Positions 1 through 12,299 of a stretch of 12,299 nt of DNA are shown here, one piece after another; within the stretch, counting starts at the first letter, position 1, and every line of letters begins with the position of its first letter. The notes below the pieces were generated by a model. That model was not told the DNA's origin and ran no database searches. It worked only from the letters and a program-made list of their open reading frames with translations. The DNA comes from a virus. Taxonomy: Duplodnaviria; Heunggongvirae; Uroviricota; Caudoviricetes. The translations under genes and the position numbers were made by a program. Location of the stretch: the IMG/VR virus record IMGVR_UViG_2778261165_000013. One strand, given 5' to 3'.

Positions 1-224
1 GCTTGCGGGCGTTCATGCTCAGAAACAAGGTTGGGACAAGCACTTCCAGGCTAACACAGTCAGAAATCGAAACGTACTCTCAACAGTTCGCTTAGGCATG
101 GAAGTTTTGCGGCATTCTGGCTACACAATAACAAGGGAAGACTTACTCGTGGCTGCAACCCTACTAGCTCAAAATTTATTCACACATGGTTACGCTTTGG
201 GGAAATTATGAGGGGATCTCTCAG
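1..224 (+). mobile_element. IS10 (IS4 family), partial copy: inside-end portion, element continues left of the window
   Basis: Terminus ...GGGGATCTCTCAG at 212..224 (reverse complement CTGAGAGATCCCCTCATAATTTCCCC) matches my recollection of the IS10 inside end, including its GATC Dam site. Positions 1..224 are the exact reverse complement of 12076..12299. Confidence 0.85.
2..211 (+). CDS. IS10 transposase, C-terminal 69 codons (5-prime part lies outside the window)
   Basis: Open frame from position 2 to TGA at 209..211 translating to LAGVHAQKQGWDKHFQANTVRNRNVLSTVRLGMEVLRHSGYTITREDLLVAATLLAQNLFTHGYALGKL, recognised as the IS10 transposase C-terminus. Confidence 0.8.
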   Translation, partial: LAGVHAQKQGWDKHFQANTVRNRNVLSTVRLGMEVLRHSGYTITREDLLVAATLLAQNLFTHGYALGKL

Positions 225-1359
225 TACTCAGCATCGACAGTCCTTTAAGTACCCTTATCTGAATTTCCCTCATACTGGCACCATCGCGCGCAACAGGTGA
301 GAAAAAGTCTTCAAGTAGATCGTTATTCTGAAGTGGTGCAACATGTACAGAAGGATATTTCACTTCTATTTCATCAGATTTATTCTGCGCGTAAGCGGAA
401 AGTATACGTACACCTCTGCCAATGACATCAATGGCGGTTCCAGGATCGTTCACTGCGGGGGAAAGGGCTCGGCAGGCTATTTCGGCCATGACGCTAAGAC
501 AAAATCGGGGGTCCTGAGCAAATGAACGTACATCCGAGACAATAATCGTCTCAAGTAAATCGGTGCTGATTGATGACTCCTGGCCCTGACTCAGGTACAA
601 AACTGGCGTGGACGGATGTATGAAACTGCCCGGCTGCGCCACGAGGTATACATGACGGGGATCATTGGTCAGCAGCTTGCTGAGTTTCACCATATCAACA
701 TATTCAACATAGCCAATCTTTTTCGGATAAACTGCAACCGTTCCTTTCGGCTGTTCATTGTTCTCAAGCCATGGATATCCGCCGAGACAGGGATTTCTTG
801 CTCTCGCAATAAATGTTTCGATGGCCGCCTGTTCTACTTTTGCCGTTGTCTCACCAACCCTCCCCAGAGAGGTCAAATGCTGTATCCAGCGAAGCAATGT
901 GATGAGGATTAAGGCAATGACAACCAGTGTTACAATGAATAAAATGACTCTCCCCCTTTCTCCATAAGCTCCCATATTGAGGGCAATAATCCCTACCAGA
1001 CTGAAGAGAAAAGAACCGATGAAGGTGGCCAGTACATTTTGTGTGGTGACGTCTTCAACAACTAAACGAGTAGCTCTGGGAGTCACATTAGTAGTGGCTG
1101 AACCGTAGGCTGTGACCATGATGCTCAGCGAAAATGTGGTCACTGCCAGCATACTCGATGCCAGTATGTTCAGAATGTTATCGACTGCTTCCGCACCAAC
1201 CTTCACGGAAACCGACTCAGGTATCATTGATTTAAAAAGAATTGATAAAAGGGCCGTTATTATTGCGACAATTGCGAATAACGTTGCCCTGAACCATAGT
1301 TTTTTAAATGTCTGCTTCAGCATCCATTTCCAGCGTGAAATCATTCTGCATTCCCTCAT
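190..1359 (-). CDS. Predicted inner-membrane protein (possibly DUF2254/COG4325-like), 3-prime end truncated by IS10; last ~11 codons (ERSPHNFPKA) are IS10-encoded
   Basis: 389-aa ORF with several hydrophobic helices in the N-terminal ~170 aa and a soluble C-terminal region. The ORF crosses the IS10 terminus at 224/225 and stops inside IS10. Start is ambiguous: ATG at 1359, or ATG at 1344 (MISRW...) which has a GAGGGA Shine-Dalgarno 7 nt upstream. Family assignment is from memory only. Confidence 0.65.
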   Translation of the reverse strand: MRECRMISRWKWMLKQTFKKLWFRATLFAIVAIITALLSILFKSMIPESVSVKVGAEAVDNILNILASSMLAVTTFSLSIMVTAYGSATTNVTPRATRLVVEDVTTQNVLATFIGSFLFSLVGIIALNMGAYGERGRVILFIVTLVVIALILITLLRWIQHLTSLGRVGETTAKVEQAAIETFIARARNPCLGGYPWLENNEQPKGTVAVYPKKIGYVEYVDMVKLSKLLTNDPRHVYLVAQPGSFIHPSTPVLYLSQGQESSISTDLLETIIVSDVRSFAQDPRFCLSVMAEIACRALSPAVNDPGTAIDVIGRGVRILSAYAQNKSDEIEVKYPSVHVAPLQNNDLLEDFFSPVARDGASMREIQIRVLKGLSMLSTERSPHNFPKA

Positions 1360-1379
1360 ATTGCAGCCGGGATAAATAA

Positions 1380-1400
1380 ATGCCGCCTCTGTGGCGGCAT
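1380..1400 (-). terminator. Candidate intrinsic terminator between the BCCT transporter gene and the membrane-protein gene
   Basis: Perfect 8-bp stem ATGCCGCC (1380..1387) / GGCGGCAT (1393..1400) with a 5-nt loop; on the minus strand it is followed by TTATTTATC. Confidence 0.45.
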
Positions 1401-1407
1401 GTTGCTG

Positions 1408-3411
1408 TTAACGAACCAGATGCAGGAAGTGCAGGTGTTTTTCGTACTGGTCCAGTATGTCATTAATCAGCTGTTCCTGATTCCAGCCCATTACATCATA
1501 ATTTTGGCCGCCCTCTTTGAGATAGACTTCAGCGCGATAATATCGATGTTGTTCACTCTGCTGCTCATCATTATCCAGCGCAGCGAGCGCGAAGGTCGGT
1601 GAGTTATACCCGCGAAGCCTCACTTCATATATATAATTCAGCTCGTTGCCCAAATCGACTTCAAGGCGAATACGATCCTCGGCGGCGTCACTGATGTGGC
1701 TTATCGTTCCCTGCTTGTTAAGTTCCTCCTGAACCAGCGTCATGGCGGGTTGGATAATGTCGTCCATAAAACGTTTCACAAGAGAGCGCTTCGGCAAATA
1801 CGCGATATTGCGTAACCTTCTCTGCCAGGGAATTGGGTTACGTGCAGCCGTAGGAGCAATAGTCGCCATGCTAAGGCTTTCACGCTTGGTCAAATCCCGA
1901 CGCAGGGCTTTTAACAGTCCGTATATGGATATTAATAAGATAACTGAGAAGGGCAATGCACTCGCTATCGTTACGGTTTGCAACGCACTCAGCCCCCCTG
2001 CGATCAGCAGGGCAATAGCAACAACGCCCATGAGCGATGCCCAGAAAATTCGCTGCCAGACGGGCGTGTTTGCCACCCCACCTGATGCCAGAGTATCCAC
2101 AACCATTGCCCCCGAATCAGCAGACGTTACAAAGAAGACGATGACCATCGCCATTGCAATGAATGACAGCACGGAAGAGAACGGGAAATGCTCCAGGAAA
2201 TTAAACAGGGCAAGCGCAACATCCTGCTGAACGGTATTGGCGAGGTCAGTGGCGCCCTGGTTCATGATGAGATAGATGGCGCTGTTTCCAAACACCGTCA
2301 TCCACATGAGCGTAAAGCCGGCGGGAACAAACAACACGCCAGTCACGAACTCACGAATTGTCCTGCCGCGGGAAACGCGTGCAATGAACATACCTACAAA
2401 CGGCGACCATGAAAGCCACCATCCCCAGTATAATAATGTCCAGCCCCCCAGCCAGTTGCTCGACTTGGGTTCATACGCGTAAAGGTTGAACGTTTTACTC
2501 ACCAGTTCCGACAGATAACCACCCGTATTTTCCACAAATGACTTCAGCAGAAGCACAGTGGGACCCAGGCACAAGACCAGCGCCAGGAGCAACACCGCCA
2601 GGCCCAGATTAAGCTCAGACAGGATGCGTATTCCCTTGTCCAGGCCGGACACCACCGAAATCGTCGCTAACCCCGTGATGACCACGATCAAAATGACCTG
2701 TACCGTTTCATTGATGGGCACGCCGAAAAGATGGTTCAAACCGGCATTCACCTGCAATACACCGTAACCCAGCGATGTTGCAACGCCAAAGACAGTGCCT
2801 ATCACGGCGAAGATATCAACCGCGTGGCCTATAGGCCCGTAAATGCGATCGCCGATAATGGGATAGAGCGCAGAACGCAGCGTTAAAGGCAGACCGTGAC
2901 GGTAACTGAAAAAGGCCAGAATCAGCGCCACGATGGCATAAATTGCCCATGCGTGCAGACCCCAGTGGAAGAACGTCAGGCGCATGGCTTCCTTCGCTGC
3001 CGCAACGGTCTCTGGAGTGCCGACAGGTGGCGAAAGATAATGCATCACAGGTTCGGCAACGCCAAAGAACATCAGGCCGATCCCCATCCCTGCCGAAAAA
3101 AGCATCGCGAACCAGGAGTGGTAGCTGAAATCAGGCTGCGCATGGTCTGGGCCCAGCTTTATATCACCGTAACGTGAGAGTCCAAGGAACGTGACGCTCA
3201 GTAAAATCAGGGCCACAGCAAGTATGTAGAACCAGCTGGCATTCGTGAAGATTTGTTGCTGAAGTAGTTTAAAATTTTTGTCGGCGACATCCGGGAATAC
3301 GGCGGCAAAGGCGACAAGAAGGAAAATTAGCAAAGCAGATGTAAAGAATACCGCTTTGTTAATCTGGCTTGTAGACTTCTTTGGGGTTGTATCATTTTCA
3401 CTCATAATCAT
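1408..3411 (-). CDS. BCCT-family transporter, BetT-like (choline/betaine/carnitine transporter paralog), 667 aa
   Basis: Long polytopic membrane protein with a BetT-like pattern (…GIGLMFFGVAEP…, …WTLLYWGWWLSWSPFVGMFIARVSRGRTIREF…) and a ~170-aa hydrophilic C-terminal tail ending DILDQYEKHLHFLHLVR, as in E. coli BetT. Not identical to my recollection of BetT itself. Confidence 0.88.
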   Translation of the reverse strand: MIMSENDTTPKKSTSQINKAVFFTSALLIFLLVAFAAVFPDVADKNFKLLQQQIFTNASWFYILAVALILLSVTFLGLSRYGDIKLGPDHAQPDFSYHSWFAMLFSAGMGIGLMFFGVAEPVMHYLSPPVGTPETVAAAKEAMRLTFFHWGLHAWAIYAIVALILAFFSYRHGLPLTLRSALYPIIGDRIYGPIGHAVDIFAVIGTVFGVATSLGYGVLQVNAGLNHLFGVPINETVQVILIVVITGLATISVVSGLDKGIRILSELNLGLAVLLLALVLCLGPTVLLLKSFVENTGGYLSELVSKTFNLYAYEPKSSNWLGGWTLLYWGWWLSWSPFVGMFIARVSRGRTIREFVTGVLFVPAGFTLMWMTVFGNSAIYLIMNQGATDLANTVQQDVALALFNFLEHFPFSSVLSFIAMAMVIVFFVTSADSGAMVVDTLASGGVANTPVWQRIFWASLMGVVAIALLIAGGLSALQTVTIASALPFSVILLISIYGLLKALRRDLTKRESLSMATIAPTAARNPIPWQRRLRNIAYLPKRSLVKRFMDDIIQPAMTLVQEELNKQGTISHISDAAEDRIRLEVDLGNELNYIYEVRLRGYNSPTFALAALDNDEQQSEQHRYYRAEVYLKEGGQNYDVMGWNQEQLINDILDQYEKHLHFLHLVR

Positions 3412-3745
3412 TTATTCCATTAATTAAATCCGCACTGGATAGAAGGTACTACCTCTCACAGAGTAGCAAAGTTCAACTGGCTATGCGGGGTTAATCGGAA
3501 TGCATGGTGGAATGAGTGCCGATACAAATCATCCTATATTCTAAGGAGTTTTAAGTTACTCAGCCTGCCAATTACTGGGGCATTTAATTTGTATGATCTG
3601 TATCAAAGCTGGGATATAAGTTAAGTGAAGTATATTAGGCACGAATTACCAGCGTCTGCTCTTGGCACAAAGCGGACAACCACGCTAGCTCTACCCTGTG
3701 CCACAAAATGTCAATTTGCATCTGAACTAATGCACTTTAATCTCG

Positions 3746-4168
3746 TCACTTCAATAAATACCGAACATCCCCCTGATAAAACGACAATATGCGCTGCATA
3801 ACTTCGCTCTTCCGGCACTCGCGACAGATTATGTTTAGGCGACTGTCGTAGCGACGTATTTCTCCGTCAGGTAATGACCAGATAAGGTCCGGATCAACCA
3901 CAACCGGTTTCTTCAGCTTTGCCCTCGATAATTTTTTGCGGGCATTTTGCCAGTCTTTACGAGCCTGTTCAGACGGGAATAACCCGTAGCCAGAATTGTA
4001 TACATCGCCACTGGCAACCAGCTCTCTGGCCAGAACGCTCATCAGATATCTTGTTGCCCCAGTTTTAGCTTCCAGTTGTCGTAACGTCTCGCGCCCACTC
4101 TGGCGTACGAGTTCAAGAACCTGCCCTTTAATTTTTTCCCGCTCTTCTTGTGTAAAAACTTTTGCCAC
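3746..4168 (-). CDS. Hypothetical 140-aa protein downstream of the replication-initiator gene (possible winged-helix/helper protein)
   Basis: ORF with a strong AGGAGG Shine-Dalgarno ~6 nt upstream of the ATG at 4168, co-oriented with and 40 bp downstream of the initiator-like gene. No family recognised. Confidence 0.55.
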   Translation of the reverse strand: MAKVFTQEEREKIKGQVLELVRQSGRETLRQLEAKTGATRYLMSVLARELVASGDVYNSGYGLFPSEQARKDWQNARKKLSRAKLKKPVVVDPDLIWSLPDGEIRRYDSRLNIICRECRKSEVMQRILSFYQGDVRYLLK

Positions 4169-4208
4169 AAGCCCTCCTGAAAATTACCTCATGACCAGAA
4201 ATTAACAC

Positions 4209-5279
4209 TTACCCCCTGAAGCCCGGCGGAATTTCGTTATCCGGTTCAGAAATATGATTCACACAACGCTGGTTGTTCGTGCCGCTTACCGGGAGCAACC
4301 AGGGGTTCTCAAAATTCCGGTCCGGTCCAAAAAACGTCGTCGCTCGCTGAACAAATTCCGTTCCCGTTTTCCCGGTAGCCGCCAAGTATCTTGCGTAACG
4401 CCTCACGCCATCCAGCATGGCCTCTGGTGGCACCCCCTCGCGTAATCTGGCCTTCCAGGCACTGAAAGCGGATTTCTTCGGGTTTGCCCCAGCACGCAAC
4501 GGGTACTCCCGCCAGACCTGTTCGAACACATCCGGATAATCCACTCGTCCCACAGACTGCCCGGTGTTTTCCGGGACTACCCGATCGGTTTCCCGCTGAA
4601 TGGCGGAATCGGCTTCAGGCTGCTGCAGTTGGTGTGATTGCTCCGCCCTTGCGGTCATCACCTGCTGCACAGCGCCCGAATCGGCTTTCAGCGCATACGC
4701 TGAATCGGCTTCCGGTGTCGTGCCTGCTGGCTGACCAAGATTGACGGTCTGAACATCCCCTGCCTGGTTCGTGGCGTTTTTTACGCCATGGACCATAGTG
4801 TTTTGATCTTCTTGATCTGTATCTTTATCTGTATCTTTATCTGTCGTGACTCGTCGTGACATGTGCGTGACATTTCGTGACGCGCCGTGACAATCGCCAT
4901 TTTGTTCCCGCTTTCTTTCCCTCTCTCGCTGCGCCCTCTTGCGCTCTGCAGGAGATTTTGCGGTTTGCGAAATATTGCCGTTGTCCTCTTTAAGCACCTG
5001 GCGTTTTTCCCATCCAGTGATTAAATCACCATCAAGTACCCGCCCCTGCATCGTCTGCAAAATTGAATCAATTACCTCTTCTGTCACGTCGAGCGCACTT
5101 GCCAAATCTTCTGTCGTGACATCAATGTGACCTCGCGTGACATTTCGTGACGCGCTCACCAGGAGGTGGATATACACTGCCATCACTGTTGCAATTGGCT
5201 GTCCTGACACCCTGGCAATTGTTCGCCACTTAGGGTCATTTGGCATGTCATGCCATAATCTGAGCCAGGCGTTAGCCAT
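4209..5279 (-). CDS. Phage replication-initiator-like protein (lambda O analog; position of ydaU in Rac) with origin iterons inside the coding sequence
   Basis: ORF of ~356 aa; the ATG at 5279 has a GAGGTGAG Shine-Dalgarno, while the ORF track starts at an upstream GTG at 5285. Sits immediately after the ydaT-like gene, as O follows cII in lambdoid phages. Contains two clusters of phased CGTGAC repeats, mirrored in the protein as a repeated ASRNVT segment and a low-complexity TDKDTDKDTD linker. Confidence 0.6.
   Translation of the reverse strand: MANAWLRLWHDMPNDPKWRTIARVSGQPIATVMAVYIHLLVSASRNVTRGHIDVTTEDLASALDVTEEVIDSILQTMQGRVLDGDLITGWEKRQVLKEDNGNISQTAKSPAERKRAQRERERKREQNGDCHGASRNVTHMSRRVTTDKDTDKDTDQEDQNTMVHGVKNATNQAGDVQTVNLGQPAGTTPEADSAYALKADSGAVQQVMTARAEQSHQLQQPEADSAIQRETDRVVPENTGQSVGRVDYPDVFEQVWREYPLRAGANPKKSAFSAWKARLREGVPPEAMLDGVRRYARYLAATGKTGTEFVQRATTFFGPDRNFENPWLLPVSGTNNQRCVNHISEPDNEIPPGFRG
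4817..4891. repeat. Candidate replication-origin iteron array 1: tandem 12-mer TCTGTATCTTTA x2, then five CGTGAC repeats phased at 10-11 bp
   Basis: CGTGAC at 4845, 4855, 4866, 4876 and 4886; AT-rich tandem 12-mers at 4817..4840; a polypyrimidine tract follows at ~4905..4945. Confidence 0.6.
5115..5155. repeat. Candidate iteron array 2: four YGTGAC repeats phased at 10-11 bp
   Basis: CGTGAC/TGTGAC at 5115, 5126, 5136 and 5146. The 21-mer GCGTGACATTTCGTGACGCGC at 5135..5155 is identical to 4865..4885. Confidence 0.55.
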
Positions 5280-5350
5280 ACTCACCTCTTTTGATACCGA
5301 ATCTTTTTACTCACAAATTGCCGGAAGTGATCCGGTATGAATATTGCGAG

Positions 5351-5776
5351 TCAATGCACAGCCACAATATTTCCTGCAGGGCCACCACGATTCATCTGGT
5401 TGAAACCAGCGATCGCCACTGCGACAAAATCATCAGCGTCTCTCACCAGTCGTTCCCGCGTCTCCACTAGTTCCCGAAAATAGGCTGAGCTATGGCTGCG
5501 CATTCGGGCCACCAGCAGAGGTGGCATTGCTTTTTCGATAGCTGGTAACAACGCCTGAATTTTTTCAACTGCATCAGGGGTGTCTTTCTCTACCCAGCGG
5601 AAAATTTTCTGGGTATTGCGAGCCAGGGCTTCCGGATGGCTGTCGTCATACAGTTCTGGGAACGTCATACCCAGTTCAAAATAAGCCCTGGTTATTTCAG
5701 CTGCCGGAACTTTTTCACCGTCCGGATGCGCCCAGGCATTCATCGCCATGCGGATGTGTTCATGCTTGATTTTCAT
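5351..5776 (-). CDS. ydaT: YdaT-like protein (CII-position gene of the Rac immunity region)
   Basis: 141-aa ORF with an AGGAG Shine-Dalgarno 9 nt upstream of the ATG at 5776; directly downstream of, and overlapping by 17 nt, the Cro-like gene. Symbol assigned by synteny and size; the sequence was not verified from memory. Confidence 0.6.
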   Translation of the reverse strand: MKIKHEHIRMAMNAWAHPDGEKVPAAEITRAYFELGMTFPELYDDSHPEALARNTQKIFRWVEKDTPDAVEKIQALLPAIEKAMPPLLVARMRSHSSAYFRELVETRERLVRDADDFVAVAIAGFNQMNRGGPAGNIVAVH

Positions 5777-6041
5777 GAATCAAGCTCCTAGAAAGTGGTT
5801 GTGTTAACATTTTGGTATCTTCCAGCTCGGGCCAAATATTCATCCAATCAAAAGGCCTTAGTTGCTGACGTGTAACTTCACCATTACTGGCTCGCTCAAT
5901 AAGGACACATAACGATGCCCCTAACACTTGACCTTTACTCAATGCCTTTCTTAGATAACCGATGCTGGTACCACACTCGCATGCAAACATACGCTGTTCA
6001 TCTGACGAAAGAGAATTGAGAAATATTCTTAATTCTTCCAT
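5760..6041 (-). CDS. ydaS: Cro-type helix-turn-helix regulator (YdaS-like)
   Basis: 93-aa ORF with an AAGGAG Shine-Dalgarno 7 nt upstream of the ATG at 6041; helix-turn-helix-like segment QRMFACECGTSIGYLRKALSKGQ; divergent from the repressor gene across an operator-containing 100-bp spacer. Confidence 0.65.
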   Translation of the reverse strand: MEELRIFLNSLSSDEQRMFACECGTSIGYLRKALSKGQVLGASLCVLIERASNGEVTRQQLRPFDWMNIWPELEDTKMLTQPLSRSLIHENQA

Positions 6042-6070
6042 AGCTACTCCTTAGTAAACACAGCAAAGAA

Positions 6071-6148
6071 TACCCATAGGTAAACAAAAGTCAATACCCA
6101 CAGGTTGTTTACCTTGCAGTAATCGCATCTATTATTTACCTATGGACA
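6071..6148. promoter_or_regulatory. Operator cluster (OR-like) in the divergent ydaS / racR control region
   Basis: Copies of a 12-bp near-palindrome TACCYATRGGTA: TACCCATAGGTA at 6071..6082, TACCCACAGGTT at 6095..6106 (24 bp later) and TACCTATGGACA at 6137..6148, the last overlapping the racR start codon. Confidence 0.6.
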
Positions 6149-6561
6149 AATATGAATTTAGACGACAGCAACTCATCAAAATTCGTGATGAGAAATGCGA
6201 TGGTAAAGCGGTTAACGTGGCCAGAAAGATCGGGCGCGAGCCTTCTTATGTATCAAGAATGTTGTACCCAGAGGGGAAAAAGGGAAAAAAACGGATCGCT
6301 GATGATATGGTGGAGATTATCGAAGAGTCCTTTGGGTTACCCCGGGGATGGATGGATGGTATCGTTTCATCATCAACGAACACAGCCTCCAGTTATGAAA
6401 CAAGGGTTCTAACGCCACGACAACGTATTTTTTTAGATCTCTTAGACGAACTGCCAGAAAGTGAAGCGGATAACTTATTAAAAACTCTTGAAGAGAAAAA
6501 ACAGTATTACAATATGATCTACGAAGAAATCCGTAAAAAGAAAGCACAAAACGCATCATAG
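6142..6561 (+). CDS. racR: Prophage repressor-like helix-turn-helix protein (CI analog, RacR position)
   Basis: 139-aa ORF with an N-terminal helix-turn-helix (GKAVNVARKIGREPSYVSRML), divergent from the Cro-like gene and flanked on both sides by the palindromic operator motif. No in-frame upstream start exists before a stop at 6055. Length differs from the 158 aa I recall for K-12 RacR, so this may be a variant immunity type. Confidence 0.65.
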   Translation: MDKYEFRRQQLIKIRDEKCDGKAVNVARKIGREPSYVSRMLYPEGKKGKKRIADDMVEIIEESFGLPRGWMDGIVSSSTNTASSYETRVLTPRQRIFLDLLDELPESEADNLLKTLEEKKQYYNMIYEEIRKKKAQNAS

Positions 6562-6603
6562 CTCACCAAACAACTAGTCACCAGTTAAGACACCGCAAAA
6601 AGT

Positions 6604-6644
6604 TACCCATGGGTATTTACTTTTTAAATACCTATGGGTATCCT
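6604..6644 (+). promoter_or_regulatory. Second operator pair (OL-like) with candidate promoter for the ydaG-ydaF early transcript
   Basis: Perfect palindrome TACCCATGGGTA at 6604..6615 and TACCTATGGGTA at 6629..6640 (25 bp centre to centre). Possible -35 TTTACT (6616..6621) and -10 TATCCT (6639..6644) with a 17-bp spacer overlapping the operators. Confidence 0.5.
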
Positions 6645-6814
6645 TCTTTTCATACCAACCCACCCCGCCCCACAGAATGCAGGGCAATACTCGAGTTACC
6701 AGGCAGTGGTCAGGGGTTAAGTAGCCAGCCCGAGGCGTAAGAACATGACGGCGGGATTCAAATTTTGCAGTGCAGCAGTTAGTTCCGCCACCCGGCGTTA
6801 AGGGGAGAGATAAG

Positions 6815-6949
6815 ATGGTGCATTACGAAGTAGTTCAGTATTTGATGGATTGTTGCGGTATCACTTACAACCAGGCTGTGCAGGCTTTACGCAGCAACGA
6901 CTGGGATCTCTGGCAGGCAGAAGTCGCTATACGTAGCAACAAGATGTGA
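6815..6949 (+). CDS. ydaG: Rac prophage small protein YdaG (44 aa)
   Basis: Hand-translated: MVHYEVVQYLMDCCGITYNQAVQALRSNDWDLWQAEVAIRSNKM. Shine-Dalgarno AAGGGGAGAG upstream. Length matches what I recall for YdaG. Not in the ORF track because it is short. Confidence 0.7.
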   Translation: MVHYEVVQYLMDCCGITYNQAVQALRSNDWDLWQAEVAIRSNKM

Positions 6950-6959
6950 GATTCGCAAA

Positions 6960-7115
6960 ATGCAAAAAATCGACCTCGGCAACAACGAATCCCTGGTGTG
7001 CGGCGTGTTCCCCAACCAGGATGGAACGTTCACTGCCATGACGTATACCAAAAGCAAAACATTTAAAACCGAAACTGGTGCGCGCCGATGGTTGGAGAAG
7101 CACACAGTAAGCTAA
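6960..7115 (+). CDS. ydaF: Rac prophage small protein YdaF (51 aa)
   Basis: Hand-translated: MQKIDLGNNESLVCGVFPNQDGTFTAMTYTKSKTFKTETGARRWLEKHTVS. Starts 10 nt after the ydaG stop; its 3-prime end overlaps the convergent sieB stop by 4 nt. Confidence 0.7.
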   Translation: MQKIDLGNNESLVCGVFPNQDGTFTAMTYTKSKTFKTETGARRWLEKHTVS

Positions 7116-7600
7116 CGATTAAAACGTCTACTCCTGCTGTTCCAGAATAACTTCATAAAATGGGAGTATTTTTCGGTGACGAGATAATAAGAACAGTTTG
7201 CGCTATCACTCTGATGTTGAATGATGCCCTTCCGTTCTAATTTTTTCATAACCAGGTTACGGCAAGGAGAAGTGATAATAAGATTTCCTGTTTTAAGGAA
7301 ATCTTTAAATACAGCGATTTCTTTCTCAGATAAACGAAGCAATACTCGTTGCTCTGGTAGTAATGAATAATGCTTTTGAATATGTGCTCGCAATCTTGAG
7401 AAGGAAATGGCGACCACGAAAGAAAAGGCAAAAACGATAATCTGAAAGAGCCAAGGTATTTCAGTATAAGCATTGAATGCGACAGTAAACTCTTTCGGTA
7501 TCAGCCAGAGAGTGAGACCAAAAATGATAATCGTATACATAAGTCTTTCGAGTGGCTCGTTAGCAAAAAGTTTCAACAATGGAGTAAATACATCCAACAT
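7112..7600 (-). CDS. sieB: Superinfection exclusion protein B (SieB), 162 aa
   Basis: Sequence from MLDVFTPLLKLFANEPLERLMYTIIIFGLTLWLIPKEF… recognised as Rac SieB; membrane helices present. The ATG at 7600 has a GAGAG Shine-Dalgarno; the ORF-track start at 7723 is an unsupported upstream extension. Confidence 0.85.
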   Translation of the reverse strand: MLDVFTPLLKLFANEPLERLMYTIIIFGLTLWLIPKEFTVAFNAYTEIPWLFQIIVFAFSFVVAISFSRLRAHIQKHYSLLPEQRVLLRLSEKEIAVFKDFLKTGNLIITSPCRNLVMKKLERKGIIQHQSDSANCSYYLVTEKYSHFMKLFWNSRSRRFNR

Positions 7601-7817
7601 ATCAATAACTCTCAACTGTAAGGGTATTGAAATGTTAACACAAGCTCTCGCTGTAGGGGTATAGCCGAGACCACCGAAGCCCGGAGGTGGTGAAATAAAA
7701 CCGGGCACAACACGAAGGCGCATTTCCGATATCCATAAAGAGTCGGTCTTGTCTGTTAAATTTAAATGGTGGGAGTGCGCCTCCGGTTGTAAATAACGAC
7801 ATTGCTGTGTGTAGTCC

Positions 7818-7865
7818 TGGCGGCATCAGTTTTTTTCTTGAAGTTCGGCTGATGTCCGCCCTTTT
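7818..7865 (+). terminator. Candidate terminator-like hairpin in the sieB-kilR intergenic region
   Basis: GGCGGCATCAG (7818..7828) pairs with CTGATGTCCGCC (7848..7859) with one bulge and a 19-nt loop, followed by CTTTTTAAAG. The large loop makes it non-canonical. Confidence 0.35.
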
Positions 7866-8041
7866 TAAAGTGAATTTTGTGATGCGGTGAATGCGGCTAA
7901 GCGCACGTGGCACAGTTAAAAGTCATGTTAGTCCTTATTGGTTTGGGTGGGAAAGCCGACTGTAATTGTTAACTGGTTGCAGTCACCTGGAGGCACCAGG
8001 CACCGCATCAACAAAGTTCATTTGTAAAAATGGAGATAATT

Positions 8042-8263
8042 ATGATTGCACATCACTTCGGAACTGATGAAATACCACGTCAGTGTGTGACTCCTGGCGA
8101 TTATGTTCTTCATGAAGGCCGGACATATATTGCCTCGGCAAACAATATTAAAAAGCGAAAACTATATATTCGTAACCTGACCACAAAAACATGCATTACT
8201 GACCGCATGATTAAAGTCTTCCTCGGTCGTGATGGTTTACCTGTAAAGGCGGAGTCATGGTGA
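8042..8263 (+). CDS. kilR: Killing protein KilR (cell-division inhibitor), 73 aa
   Basis: [73 protein letters not shown] recognised as Rac KilR; GGAGA Shine-Dalgarno 5 nt upstream of the ATG at 8042. Confidence 0.88.
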
Positions 8264-8433
8264 TGACTAAGAAAATAAAATGTGCTTACCACCTTTGCAA
8301 AAAAGACGTTGAAGAAAGCAAAGCTATTGAAAGAATGCTTCACTTCATGCACGGGATTTTATCAAAAGACGAACCGAGAAAATATTGCAGTGAAGCTTGT
8401 GCCGAAAAAGACCAGATGGCACATGAACTTTAA
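8263..8433 (+). CDS. ydaE: Rac prophage small protein YdaE (56 aa)
   Basis: Hand-translated: [56 protein letters not shown]. The ATG overlaps the kilR stop (TGATGACT), suggesting translational coupling. Confidence 0.75.
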   Translation: MTKKIKCAYHLCKKDVEESKAIERMLHFMHGILSKDEPRKYCSEACAEKDQMAHEL

Positions 8434-8507
8434 TTAATTGACTATTCGAAACTGAATTTATGCCAGAAATGGCAGGTATTCGCTCAACCTTAATTAAGGA
8501 GAAAAAC

Positions 8508-8783
8508 ATGATTACCAATTATGAAGCCACTGTTGTAACTACCGATGACATTGTTCACGAGGTGAATCTGGAAGGAAAGCGCATTGGCTACGTAATTAAA
8601 ACAGAAAATAAAGAAACCCCATTCACTGTGGTTGATATCGATGGTCCATCAGGCAACGTAAAAACACTTGATGAAGGTGTCAAAAAAATGTGCCTGGTGC
8701 ATATCGGAAAGAATCTGCCCGCAGAAAAAAAAGCCGAATTTCTGGCAACTCTAATTGCAATGAAATTAAAAGGTGAAATCTGA
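8508..8783 (+). CDS. racC: RacC protein (91 aa)
   Basis: MITNYEATVVTTDDIVHEVNLEGKRIGYVIKTENKETPFTVVDIDGPSGNVKTLDEGVKKMCLVHIGKNLPAEKKAEFLATLIAMKLKGEI recognised as RacC; AAGGAG Shine-Dalgarno 6 nt upstream of the ATG at 8508. Confidence 0.88.
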   Translation: MITNYEATVVTTDDIVHEVNLEGKRIGYVIKTENKETPFTVVDIDGPSGNVKTLDEGVKKMCLVHIGKNLPAEKKAEFLATLIAMKLKGEI

Positions 8784-8788
8784 AAGAA

Positions 8789-8813
8789 ATAGCCTGCGTA
8801 TGGCGCAGGCTAT
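8789..8813 (+). other. Perfect 10-bp stem-loop between racC and recE, with no U-tract
   Basis: ATAGCCTGCG (8789..8798), loop TATGG, CGCAGGCTAT (8804..8813), starting 6 nt after the racC stop. Confidence 0.5.
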
Positions 8814-8884
8814 GAACAGTGTGTATCCGGCAAGATCATTCACTGAACAAAACGAATTTTAATCTGAGTTGAGGTTAAAAAACA

Positions 8885-11485
8885 ATGAGCACAAAACCAC
8901 TCTTCCTGTTACGGAAAGCGAAAAAATCATCCGGTGAACCTGACGTCGTCCTGTGGGCAAGCAACGATTTTGAATCGACCTGTGCCACTCTGGACTACCT
9001 GATCGTTAAGTCAGGTAAAAAACTGAGCAGCTATTTTAAAGCTGTTGCCACGAATTTTCCTGTCGTTAATGACCTGCCCGCTGAAGGTGAGATCGATTTT
9101 ACCTGGAGTGAACGCTATCAACTCAGCAAAGACTCCATGACATGGGAACTAAAACCGGGAGCAGCACCAGACAACGCTCACTATCAAGGCAATACCAACG
9201 TCAACGGCGAAGACATGACTGAGATTGAGGAGAATATGCTACTCCCAATTTCTGGCCAGGAACTGCCCATTCGTTGGCTTGCTCAACACGGCAGCGAAAA
9301 ACCGGTAACGCACGTTTCACGCGACGGACTCCAGGCATTACACATTGCTCGGGCTGAAGAACTACCGGCTGTTACTGCCCTGGCTGTTTCCCACAAAACC
9401 AGCCTGCTCGACCCGCTGGAAATTCGCGAACTCCACAAACTGGTTCGTGACACTGACAAAGTTTTCCCTAATCCTGGTAATTCAAACCTGGGACTGATAA
9501 CTGCTTTTTTCGAAGCATACCTGAACGCTGACTACACCGATCGAGGACTGCTGACAAAAGAGTGGATGAAGGGTAATCGTGTTTCACACATCACTCGCAC
9601 GGCTTCCGGTGCTAATGCTGGCGGCGGAAACCTCACCGATCGCGGCGAAGGTTTCGTACACGATCTGACGTCACTGGCGCGCGACGTAGCCACTGGCGTA
9701 CTGGCCCGTTCAATGGATCTGGACATCTATAACCTTCATCCGGCACACGCTAAACGCATTGAGGAAATTATCGCTGAAAATAAACCGCCCTTTTCTGTTT
9801 TCCGCGACAAATTCATCACCATGCCTGGCGGGCTGGATTATTCCCGCGCCATCGTGGTTGCGTCCGTAAAAGAAGCACCAATTGGGATCGAGGTCATCCC
9901 CGCGCACGTCACTGAATATCTGAACAAAGTACTGACTGAAACCGATCATGCCAACCCTGATCCGGAAATCGTGGATATTGCCTGCGGTCGCTCCTCTGCC
10001 CCGATGCCGCAGCGAGTAACAGAAGAAGGAAAACAGGATGATGAAGAAAAACCGCAACCATCTGGAACAACGGCAGTTGAACAGGGAGAGGCTGAAACAA
10101 TGGAACCGGACGCAACTGAACATCATCAGGACACGCAGCCGCTGGATGCTCAGTCACAGGTAAATTCTGTTGATGCGAAATATCAGGAACTGCGGGCAGA
10201 ACTCCATGAAGCCCGGAAAAACATTCCATCAAAAAATCCTGTCGATGCCGATAAATTGCTTGCTGCATCACGTGGTGAATTTGTTGACGGAATTAGCGAC
10301 CCGAACGATCCGAAATGGGTAAAGGGGATCCAGACTCGCGATTGTGTGTACCAGAACCAGCCAGAAACGGAAAAAACCAGCCCAGATATGAATCAACCTG
10401 AGCCAGTAGTGCAACAGGAACCGGAAATAGCCTGCAATGCCTGCGGCCAGACTGGCGGGGATAACTGCCCTGACTGTGGTGCGGTGATGGGCGACGCAAC
10501 ATACCAGGAAACATTCGCTGAAGAGAGTCAGGTTGAAGCTAAGGAAAATGATCCGGAGGAAATGGAAGGCGCTGAACATCCGCACAATGAGAATGCTGGC
10601 AGCGATCCGCATCGCGATTGCAGTGATGAAACTGGCGAAGTCGCAGATCCCGTAATCGTAGAAGACATAGAGCCAGGTATTTATTACGGAATTTCGAATG
10701 AGAATTACCACGCGGGTCCCGGTATCAGTAAGTCTCAGCTCGATGACATTGCTGATACTCCGGCACTATATTTGTGGCGTAAAAATGCCCCCGTGGACAC
10801 CACAAAGACAAAAACGCTCGATTTAGGAACTGCTTTCCACTGCCGGGTACTTGAACCGGAAGAATTCAGTAACCGCTTTATCGTAGCACCTGAATTTAAC
10901 CGCCGTACAAACGCCGGAAAAGAAGAAGAGAAAGCGTTTCTGATGGAATGCGCAAGCACAGGAAAAACGGTTATCACTGCGGAAGAAGGCCGGAAAATTG
11001 AACTCATGTATCAAAGCGTTATGGCTTTGCCGCTGGGGCAATGGCTTGTTGAAAGCGCCGGACACGCTGAATCATCAATTTACTGGGAAGATCCTGAAAC
11101 AGGAATTTTGTGTCGGTGCCGTCCGGACAAAATTATCCCTGAATTTCACTGGATCATGGACGTGAAAACTACGGCGGATATTCAACGATTCAAAACCGCT
11201 TATTACGACTACCGCTATCACGTTCAGGATGCATTCTACAGTGACGGTTATGAAGCACAGTTTGGAGTGCAGCCAACTTTCGTTTTTCTGGTTGCCAGCA
11301 CAACTATTGAATGCGGACGTTATCCGGTTGAAATTTTCATGATGGGCGAAGAAGCAAAACTGGCAGGTCAACAGGAATATCACCGCAATCTGCGAACCCT
11401 GTCTGACTGCCTGAATACCGATGAATGGCCAGCTATTAAGACATTATCACTGCCCCGCTGGGCTAAGGAATATGCAAATGACTAA
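8885..11485 (+). CDS. recE: Exodeoxyribonuclease VIII (RecE), full length 866 aa
   Basis: 866-aa ORF starting [29 protein letters not shown]… and ending …[13 protein letters not shown], recognised as E. coli Rac RecE. GAGG Shine-Dalgarno upstream; its stop overlaps the recT start in the ATGACTAAG arrangement. Confidence 0.95.
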
Positions 11486-12110
11486 GCAACCACCAATCGC
11501 AAAAGCCGATCTGCAAAAAACTCAGGGAAACCGTGCACCAGCAGCAGTTAAAAATAGCGACGTGATTAGTTTTATTAACCAGCCATCAATGAAAGAGCAA
11601 CTGGCAGCAGCTCTTCCACGCCATATGACGGCTGAACGTATGATCCGTATCGCCACCACAGAAATTCGTAAAGTTCCGGCGTTAGGAAACTGTGACACTA
11701 TGAGTTTTGTCAGTGCGATCGTACAGTGTTCACAGCTCGGACTTGAGCCAGGTAGCGCCCTCGGTCATGCATATTTACTGCCTTTTGGTAATAAAAACGA
11801 AAAGAGCGGTAAAAAGAACGTTCAGCTAATCATTGGCTATCGCGGCATGATTGATCTGGCTCGCCGTTCTGGTCAAATCGCCAGCCTGTCAGCCCGTGTT
11901 GTCCGTGAAGGTGACGAGTTTAGCTTCGAATTTGGCCTTGATGAAAAGTTAATACACCGCCCGGGAGAAAACGAAGATGCCCCGGTTACCCACGTCTATG
12001 CTGTCGCAAGACTGAAAGACGGAGGTACTCAGTTTGAAGTTATGACGCGCAAACAGATTGAGCTGGTGCGCAGCCCTGAGAGATCCCCTCATAATTTCCC
12101 CAAAGCGTAA
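11478..12110 (+). pseudogene. recT: recT (RecT single-strand annealing protein) truncated by IS10 after codon 199; chimeric ORF ends with the IS10-encoded tail PERSPHNFPKA
   Basis: Begins [41 protein letters not shown]…, recognised as RecT (full length 269 aa). Native sequence ends at 12075, where the IS10 inside end begins, and the reading frame runs 32 nt into IS10 to a TAA. Confidence 0.9.
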
Positions 12111-12299
12111 CCATGTGTGAATAAATTTTGAGCTAGTAGGGTTGCAGCCACGAGTAAGTCTTCCCTTGTTATTGTGTAGCCAGAATGCCGCAAAACTTCC
12201 ATGCCTAAGCGAACTGTTGAGAGTACGTTTCGATTTCTGACTGTGTTAGCCTGGAAGTGCTTGTCCCAACCTTGTTTCTGAGCATGAACGCCCGCAAGC
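12076..12299 (-). mobile_element. IS10 (IS4 family), partial copy: inside-end portion, element continues right of the window, inverted relative to the left copy
   Basis: Begins CTGAGAGATCCCCTCATAATTTCCCCAAAGCGTAACC… and is the exact reverse complement of 1..224. Confidence 0.85.
12089..12298 (-). CDS. IS10 transposase, C-terminal 69 codons (partial)
   Basis: Mirror image of the 2..211 coding fragment on the minus strand. Confidence 0.8.
   Translation of the reverse strand, partial: LAGVHAQKQGWDKHFQANTVRNRNVLSTVRLGMEVLRHSGYTITREDLLVAATLLAQNLFTHGYALGKL

Follow-up and report, generated by a model that had tools for sequence, protein, structure and literature searches.

The 12,299-nt viral record IMGVR_UViG_2778261165_000013 (the window, by which we mean that whole stretch of DNA) is part of a variant of the Escherichia coli Rac prophage and is integrated at ttcA. 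Beside the phage replication module it carries two cargo genes, one encoding a transporter of the BCCT family and the other a DUF2254 membrane protein, and a 334-bp gap (3412-3745) separates the transporter gene from DUF977, the final replication-module gene before the cargo. We found that this gap is the boundary of a cassette within a hotspot of exchange and not a deletion joint. Phage and cargo meet in it at a 24-bp dyad site (3654-3677), which we identify, from sequence comparison, as the right boundary of a BCCT+DUF2254 cassette. This cassette is mobile, and we propose that it is moved by a putative site-specific recombinase acting in trans, a reading to which we assign a probability of about 0.5.

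Phage and cargo homologies meet at a 24-bp dyad site

To find where the homologies break we searched window 3000-4400 against 5,426 complete E. coli genomes, 311 of which contain the whole stretch. Prophages that have the DUF977 module but other genes downstream match only from about 3654 upwards or, in a second class, only from 3771, while for BCCT copies elsewhere the match ends at 3514, 3541 or 3678. The two shorter end points are those of insertion sequences (IS), as the copy in the fec island of E. coli B ends at 3514, where IS600 starts, and a plasmid copy ends at 3541 with IS1. A lambdoid prophage that carries QueH and lacks the cargo (L005) aligns from 3655, with 88% identity over 3655-3900 and 95% over 3655-5811. 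From the other side, BCCT loci of about 90% identity in Citrobacter braakii, Raoultella and an Atlantibacter metagenome-assembled genome keep the upstream homology to 3649-3673. Overall, cargo-lineage homology free of IS interruption ends at 3649-3678 and phage-lineage homology begins at 3655.

The mosaic joint between replication module and non-phage cargo that a first-pass annotation of the DNA had suspected in the gap does lie there, the homology breaking at 3654-3677. Its second suggestion, a deletion joint, or any one-off illegitimate event, does not hold, as the 24 bp at the joint recur elsewhere as the boundary of cassettes. The break was revealed only by alignment with other lambdoid prophages that share the DUF977 module; an alignment with K-12 Rac, which had also been recommended, could not place it, since K-12 Rac matches only 6651-12080 and has nothing corresponding to 3300-3900. 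The proposed comparison of base composition gave no separation of cargo and phage (GC content 0.494 for 225-3411 and 0.470 for 3746-12075; 0.511 for the BCCT gene and 0.538 for the replisome organizer gene), and GC at third codon positions was likewise non-discriminating.

As the same annotation had stated, the gap is non-coding. It fills exactly the space between the start codon of BCCT (3411) and the stop codon of DUF977 (3746), both genes being on the minus strand; the longest open reading frame (ORF) that touches it has 58 aa, those within it have 23-28 aa and are unsupported, and the AAGGAG at 3543-3548 on the plus strand is followed by no ATG, GTG or TTG in the next 12 nt. No Rfam family was detected in 3200-4000 at E<=1, and a tRNA search found none in the window or the key loci.

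The sequence at the joint is GTCTGCT-CTTGGCACAA-AGCGGAC, in which inverted arms of 7 bp enclose an asymmetric 10-bp spacer. It is the sole match of the window to GTCYGCT-N10-AGCRGAC, for which 0.01 matches are expected by chance, and the flanks part exactly at its edges in at least seven contexts.

Two types of site bound exchangeable modules

Over all collected loci (72 unique A-type and 50 unique B-type instances) the sites follow the consensus cAAn GTCCGCT nnT[G/C]GC[A/T]CAA AGCGGAC, or cAAnGTCCGCTnnT[G/C]GC[A/T]CAAAGCGGAC in joined form. Both types have the arms GTCYGCT/AGCRGAC; the spacer is YYTGGCACAA in the A type, to which the site of the window belongs, and CCTCGCTCAA in the B type. 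The types thus differ at two spacer positions and share a central GC, so that the site, read as T-24 bp-A, is a 12-2-12 arrangement around this GC in A and B alike. Information content falls right outside the 24 bp, except for AA 2-3 bases to the left. Among 62 unique pairs of neighbouring sites, 38 consist of an A-type and an inverted B-type site enclosing 0.4-4.1 kb, and 14 stand back-to-back at a median distance of 18 bp. As a rule, a module has an A-type site at one end and an inverted B-type site at the other.

Three other readings of the motif were rejected. A sigma-54 promoter, suggested by TGGCAC, was discarded by hand for the wrong spacing to a GC element, and a high-copy element akin to the repetitive extragenic palindromes was discarded in view of the median of one copy per site-bearing E. 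coli genome. A coding remnant related to YdfV was dismissed as well, the 36-bp similarity to ydfV being another copy of the site and not a gene fragment.

The transporter cassette keeps its ends in different contexts

A relative free of the IS (L001) has the site a second time, as GTCCGCT-TCTGGCACAA-AGCAGAC, just past DUF2254 and in direct orientation. This left A site occupies 17757-17780 in L001, equivalent to 4643-4666 in the window's strain (L002), just left of the IS and a short way outside the window, and the cassette between its two direct A sites is 3.7 kb long. The window itself lacks the 3' end of DUF2254 (1278 bp when intact, in L001), which was cut off by the insertion of an IS10-family element whose end lies at 224/225.

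The BCCT+DUF2254 unit recurs with these ends, its neighbours on either side changing, in Rac (L001, beside a LysR-GGCT-MFS module), in another lambdoid prophage (L090, beside a ParA-like module), on the plasmids p162.2 (L003), pM505-a (L091) and AR_0119 unitig_4 (L092), in the fec island (L089) and in C. braakii (L009). The DUF2254-side end starts at exactly the same point in about 1,100 further E. coli genomes. In L001 the MFS-GGCT-LysR module next door lies in turn between the left A site and an inverted B-type site. The cassette also travels on resistance plasmids bearing qnrS1 and is not a fixed feature of Rac. Its ends are direct copies of the site and not the inverted repeats of an IS, and no target duplications flank them; the IS elements found around BCCT copies are IS600, IS911, IS1, IS100, IS3 and ISVsa5.

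The two end sites vary in a complementary manner. The left site varies in its left arm and first spacer bases (GTCCGCT TCT, GCCCGCT TTT, GTCCGCT GTT or GTCCGCA TCT) among units that are otherwise 94.5-100% identical, and has a constant right arm, AGCAGAC. At the right site it is the left arm that is constant, and the right arm is AGCGGAC or AGCAGAC. Outer half-sites that vary with the neighbour and constant inner half-sites are expected if each end is a hybrid produced by a crossover within the conserved GGCACAAAGC.

Some copies show further rearrangements. In p162.2 p1 (L003) and pM505-a (L091) the right site of the cassette is joined to ydfV'-relB-relE'; both have an ISKpn19 element a few kb from the cassette, and qnrS1 is listed nearby in L003, whereas the stretch of L091 stops short of that point. 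In C. braakii (L009; 9660-9730 and 12081-12250) the cassette stands beside phage tail genes and, by eye, the 3' half of a tRNA-Pro-like sequence, perhaps the remnant of an att site. DUF2254 is cleanly deleted there, and both degenerate end sites are retained.

A slot for cargo in lambdoid prophages

Aligned to L005, L001 returns to phage backbone 236 bp upstream of hokD, and a block of MFS-GGCT-LysR-DUF2254-BCCT replaces QueH. The alignments thus place the slot between the replication module, with DUF977 at its end, and the hokD/nin region. The prophage gene order, said by the first-pass annotation to stop at the gap, does so within the window only, whose view beyond the cargo is ended by the IS10-family end at 1-224; relatives without the IS go on, past the cargo, with hokD, nin-type, antiterminator and lysis genes. 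In prophages sharing the DUF977 module the slot is taken by QueH, by small ORFs or by at least 14 other modules, and the transporter is accordingly absent there from close relatives, as is typical of a moron.

We scanned IMG/VR viral contigs with a 15-mer taken from the right-hand part of the site. The scan gave 126 matches, and in 84 of them the correct left arm, which was outside the search pattern, was present. Through the site, the DUF977 flank (first 20 bases 'aaccacgctagctctaccct') is joined to at least 14 different, unrelated left flanks, and an inverted B-type site follows at a distance of 1-4 kb in nearly all contigs with this flank. The alternative modules (Table 1) are mostly AT-rich (GC 0.33-0.46), and their cargo includes PD-T7-1, PDC-S15 (FRG domain), PDC-S39 and PDC-S06 (AAA_13), which are known or candidate anti-phage proteins. 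The slot next to DUF977 is a defence hotspot of lambdoid prophages.

The site map of L001 comprises an inverted B site upstream of MFS, an A site between LysR and DUF2254, the A site of the window gap, another A site, inverted, within the ORF annotated as ydfV and, past flxA, a variant site. An ISEsa1 remnant, flxA and relBE form a separate insertion in this prophage. ISEsa1 was considered as the vehicle of the cargo and rejected, as the 236 bp of phage backbone part its remnant from the cargo. K-12 Qin (L216) has the same inverted A site in ydfV and a variant site between flxA and ydfW, at 13982-14005 and 14973-14996 (11601-11624 and 12592-12615 in L001). Lying between two sites, flxA resembles a cassette of this system, and the ORF annotated as ydfV, which lies over one of the sites, may be spurious.

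On the phage side of the gap, 30-35 bp upstream of the site, the minus strand has a perfect TTGACA with a poor -10 element, TAGAGC (3712-3686). If active, this candidate promoter would read from the backbone into whatever occupies the slot.

Sites in phage P2, plasmids and bacterial genomes

The genome of phage P2 (L093/L219) contains exactly two sites, an A and an inverted B site at 15423-15446 and 17021-17044. They flank the Z/fun region between the tail-fibre gene G and the sheath gene FI. The P2-like IMG/VR contig L217 carries in this slot the BCCT-DUF2254 cassette, 99.5% identical to that of Rac, together with a 1-kb module, and its homology to P2 stops exactly at the A and B sites. The same 1-kb module stands beside DUF977 in lambdoid contigs (L138) and beside the cassette on plasmid pM505-a. 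The shared ends show that cassettes of this kind move among lambdoid prophages, P2-like phages, plasmids and islands. No site was found in P4 (L218) or in the tin/old region of P2, which might bear on the published puzzle that the P2 and P4 hotspots do not exchange cargo.

A BLAST search with the bare site matched 2,308 plasmid records, among them 1,394 from Klebsiella, 322 from Enterobacter, 136 each from Pantoea and Escherichia and 96 from Citrobacter, and no annotated feature lies under the listed matches. In E. coli the site occurs in 1,274 of the 5,426 genomes, in at most five copies and, in the median, in one. On the Pantoea plasmid pJZ29-02 (L095, 5003-5553), two A/inverted-B site pairs at a spacing of only 18 bp flank a 0.4-kb unit with a small ORF; they look like minimal or empty cassettes in an array.

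Proposed mechanism and competing explanations

In the mechanism that we propose, a conservative recombination between sites, crossing over within GGCACAAAGC, would have brought in the cassette. The enzyme would be a site-specific recombinase acting in trans; as no obvious candidate is encoded by P2 or by the cassettes, it would presumably come from the host or from some other element. Modules with an A and an inverted B site could then be swapped between any two replicons that have the pair, in the style of recombinase-mediated cassette exchange (RMCE), and a cassette with two direct A sites could exit as a circle and enter any other A site. Within the gap, the 242 bp on the transporter side would be the cassette's own leader or regulatory flank and the 68 bp on the other side the tail of the DUF977 transcription unit. 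A recombinase is favoured because the dyad arms are perfect and the central GC is common to both types, because the types are told apart by two spacer positions and keep a fixed inverted arrangement, and because the sites occur on P2 and on plasmids, which are replicons without annealing recombinases. The wider reading, that A and B sites belong to a dedicated recombination system of the Enterobacterales swapping defence, toxin-antitoxin and metabolic cassettes among phages, plasmids and islands, is more tentative and, in our estimate, falls a little short of even odds.

Several observations weigh against a recombinase. None consistently adjoins the sites, a small gene annotated 'recombinase family' being next to a site only in L092. 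The unoccupied sites predicted for four left neighbours were not found in IMG/VR, so that a simple insertion event is not directly documented. The site fits none of the dif/Xer, attC and hix consensus sequences. Conservation of the A type is partly by construction, as the search pattern fixed 15 of the 24 positions; that of the B type is independent, since B sites were never searched for, and the 50 unique instances show the same arms.

Finally, a shared sequence of 24 bp could serve RecET/Red-type recombination or RecA, and RecE and RecT are encoded by the prophage itself, a few kb away in the window. The alternative that survives best builds on this and explains the joints by short-homology recombination at a self-propagating 24-bp linker, carried out by RecET (Rac), Red (lambda), Erf or host RecA with no dedicated enzyme. 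Each event would regenerate the sequence at both new joints, and cassettes carrying the linker would keep spreading. Joints at the shared 24 bp are the expected trace of homology-driven exchange, no recombinase gene is associated with the sites, and the ydfV joint of L003 and L091 can be derived from an inverted site region in ydfV, identical at 30 of 36 positions, in the same type of prophage. Nevertheless, we consider this explanation the less likely of the two. P2 and the plasmids carry sites yet encode no such recombinase, and homology alone leaves the perfect 7-bp arms, the central GC and the two spacer classes in fixed inversion (38/62 pairs) unexplained; as is established in recombineering, 24 bp is also at the low end for efficient annealing-type recombination.

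The motif might instead be a functional signal at the ends of transcription units, such as an operator, an insulator or an atypical terminator, with the joints having arisen by illegitimate recombination. Its positions agree with this, as the A site of P2 follows G, the last gene before Z/fun, its B site lies ahead of the gene that is annotated gpFI (major tail sheath), and the site of the window follows the last replication-module gene. The dyad is also able to fold into a hairpin. For a perfect B-type site, given the consensus CAAT at its left and a complementary ATTG added at its right, the folding energy is -11.2 kcal/mol (z = -7.4). The actual hybrid sites at the cassette ends, however, fold weakly (-3 to -5 kcal/mol, z of about -0.5 to -1.2), no T-run follows the hairpin, and a terminator scan was empty there. 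Moreover, illegitimate joints would scatter, whereas those observed fall inside the site in dozens of independent contexts, which makes this explanation improbable.

An ordinary moron, fixed in the Rac lineage by vertical inheritance after a single IS-mediated or illegitimate capture, with a joint that is nothing special, would account for the identical arrangement in 254-311 E. coli genomes at about 100% identity and for the IS elements that abound around BCCT copies, including the ISEsa1 transposase remnant in the same prophage, but it is very improbable and already contradicted by the direct 24-bp dyad copies in place of IS inverted repeats and target duplications, by adjoining IS elements that truncate the cassette at differing points (3514 and 3541), by the assignment of the ISEsa1 remnant to a different insertion beyond 236 bp of phage backbone, by the same cassette with the same ends in a P2-like phage and on plasmids, and by the junction of the DUF977 flank to at least 14 left flanks. 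The first-pass annotation had held that the same transporter at the same place in related prophages, with continuous homology, would reduce the junction to such a moron; this arrangement exists in those genomes, yet at least 14 other modules accompany the same replication module.

Variable hotspots in temperate phages and plasmids are heavily mined for anti-phage systems. A short defined site at the joints in Rac-type prophages, P2 and about 2,300 plasmid records suggests a concrete mechanism of cassette movement, lets cassettes be delimited to the base and offers a handle for finding the enzyme. If the wider reading is true, the dedicated system would supply the mechanism that has been missing for phage and plasmid 'hotspots', with the window gap as one of its joints.

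Comparison with known systems

The inserts at the P2 Z/fun locus are possibly the closest precedent. Nilsson et al. 2004 reportedly proposed in their title that site-specific recombination at this locus links P2-like phages and pathogenic enterobacteria, and they are said to have proposed that such inserts pass by site-specific exchange between P2-like phages and the plasmids or islands of enterobacteria, perhaps by way of these very repeats. If the repeats are the same, that work would cap the novelty of our findings. In L217 the BCCT cassette indeed occupies the same slot, from G to FI, and is bounded by the sites. The Z region of P2-like phages is a hotspot of horizontal transfer (PMC3091744; PMC9122126), and a 2026 study of P2 and P4 hotspots describes the mechanism of exchange with plasmids as unresolved, with transposons, homologous and illegitimate recombination unsatisfactory or unproven (PMC13586616). 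According to the same study, transposons are rare and flanking homology is lacking where hotspot cargo moves between unrelated replicons (PMC13586616). A search of the open literature by sequence string found no printed occurrence of the site; the lambdoid DUF977-hokD slot, the A/inverted-B pairing, the BCCT cassette and the plasmid-wide distribution were not found there either, and the hotspot papers examined are silent on the site.

The pdif modules of Acinetobacter plasmids, which are bounded by inverted XerC/XerD sites, resemble the modules described here in that they hold a single cargo gene or a few, do not encode their own recombinase, have short inverted dyad sites, form arrays and are common to unrelated replicons. 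They differ in the site, which is 7-10-7 here and not 11-6-11, and in that our hosts are Enterobacterales and phages are among the replicons. Against the 28-bp E. coli dif consensus, the best register found by hand gave 7/11 positions in the XerC arm and 5/11 in the XerD arm.

Integron cassettes are likewise poor in promoters, bounded by recombination sites and stacked at a fixed slot, with circles possible in principle and a diverse cargo that includes defence. Unlike them, the modules here lack the attC structure, the GTTRRRY core and a shared Pc promoter, occur in either orientation and have two site types; no integron integrase is annotated next to the slots. Engineered RMCE with heterospecific lox or FRT sites shares the design of equal arms and different spacers, inverted around an exchangeable segment, a design that favours swapping between molecules over excision; the likeness is one of design only, and incompatibility of A with B is an assumption.

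With the phage morons of Juhala and Hendrix, such as trkG in K-12 Rac, the cassette shares a non-phage gene that is absent at that place from close relatives and is followed by a terminator-like hairpin, and it may benefit the host through uptake of osmoprotectants or choline. It differs from them by defined, reusable ends, movement across phage families and plasmids and an undistinctive GC content; our consensus scans showed no promoter of its own. The analogy with trkG drawn by the first-pass annotation is loose, as no convincing copy of the site was seen beside trkG. The cassette does not resemble an insertion sequence or composite transposon, as its genes are BCCT and DUF2254, its ends are direct copies and no duplication flanks it. 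Crossover sites of serine recombinases (res site I, hix) are about 26-28 bp long, have two inverted 12-bp half-sites around a central dinucleotide and are recognised by a resolvase or invertase encoded nearby. In the 12-2-12 reading with its central GC the site may be compared with these, and its outer TGTCCG resembles gamma-delta res site I, but a recombinase gene is nearby only in L092 and no accessory sites were seen.

Transcription of the transporter

The first-pass annotation had placed the promoter of the transporter in the gap. Consensus scans lend this no support: a sigma-70 tool found 0 sites in 3300-3900, and the best position weight matrix score on the BCCT strand was 5.5 bits, compared with a median best of 8.7 for shuffled sequence. 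The 130 bp next to the BCCT ATG are 84-97% identical across copies, versus 90-94.5% for the coding sequence and about 79% for the distal flank. Given this conserved proximal part, a regulatory role of 3412-3653 is possible, and BCCT may possibly be read from an activator-dependent or sigma-S promoter. A structured leader RNA was also considered and rejected, as z was only -1.8 and the long stem is not conserved in Raoultella.

Features of the window

The predictions that the first-pass annotation had made for the genes around the gap, a BetT-like BCCT transporter, a membrane protein (DUF2254), an initiator-like gene (annotated 'replisome organizer' in RefSeq) and a 140-aa ORF (DUF977), proved correct (Table 1). 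The BCCT protein scores above the NCBIfam NF007399 cut-off for the BetT subfamily (752 vs 695 bits, residues 10-667); it is thus placed in that subfamily by its score. No Pfam family matched the replisome organizer. The minus strand of the window also has YdaT-like and YdaS-like genes, and the plus strand a repressor-like gene, kilR, racC, recE and recT.

Table 1. Positions of the cassette, its boundary and neighbouring features (window coordinates unless a locus is named).
Feature	Position	Strand	Evidence or remark
IS10-family (ISVsa5) end	1..224		224/224 identity to 12076-12299, inverted
DUF2254 membrane-protein gene	225..1344 (also 190/225-1344)	minus	Pfam DUF2254 E=1e-92; second cassette gene
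Terminator-like hairpin right after BCCT stop	1380..1400 (L001 19176-19156)	minus	8-bp stem with 6 G-C pairs, T-rich tail; consensus match only
BCCT transporter gene, 667 aa	1408..3411	minus	Pfam BCCT E=7e-199; first cassette gene
Cassette-internal BCCT 5' flank (putative leader/regulatory)	3412..3653	minus	common to plasmid, C. braakii, Raoultella and Atlantibacter copies
A-type 24-bp dyad site	3654..3677	plus	overlap of phage and cargo homologies; cassette right boundary, from sequence comparison
DUF977 3' flank (phage backbone side)	3678..3745	minus	homologous to cargo-less lambdoid prophages, e.g. L005
DUF977 gene (140-aa ORF)	3746..4168	minus	Pfam DUF977 E=2e-28; RefSeq relatives with same annotation
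Phage 'replisome organizer' gene	4209..5285	minus	RefSeq annotation of identical protein
Second, inverted IS10-family (ISVsa5) end	12076..12299		truncates recT
Anti-phage cargo, alternative DUF977-side modules	L106 7717-9066; L117 8840-10174; L124 3782-5569; L201 1319-3610		IMG/VR lambdoid contigs

In strain Z1323CEC0004, ISVsa5 transposase genes are annotated at the positions of the window ends. The 11.85-kb Rac segment is thus bracketed by 224-bp inverted ISVsa5 ends, like a composite transposon of the Tn10 type, and in the best-matching strain a third ISVsa5 copy interrupts BCCT.

A second mosaic joint lies at about 6650 of the window, where the homology to K-12 Rac (99.8% over 6651-12080) stops. 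The immunity and replication module at 3655-6650 is 95-96% identical to that of other lambdoid prophages and differs from the K-12 Rac module. Over 1-14000, L001 has kept nin-type, antiterminator and lysis genes, trkG and terminase genes, all of which are lost from K-12 Rac, and it also has the relBE-hokD-flxA block known from K-12 Qin.

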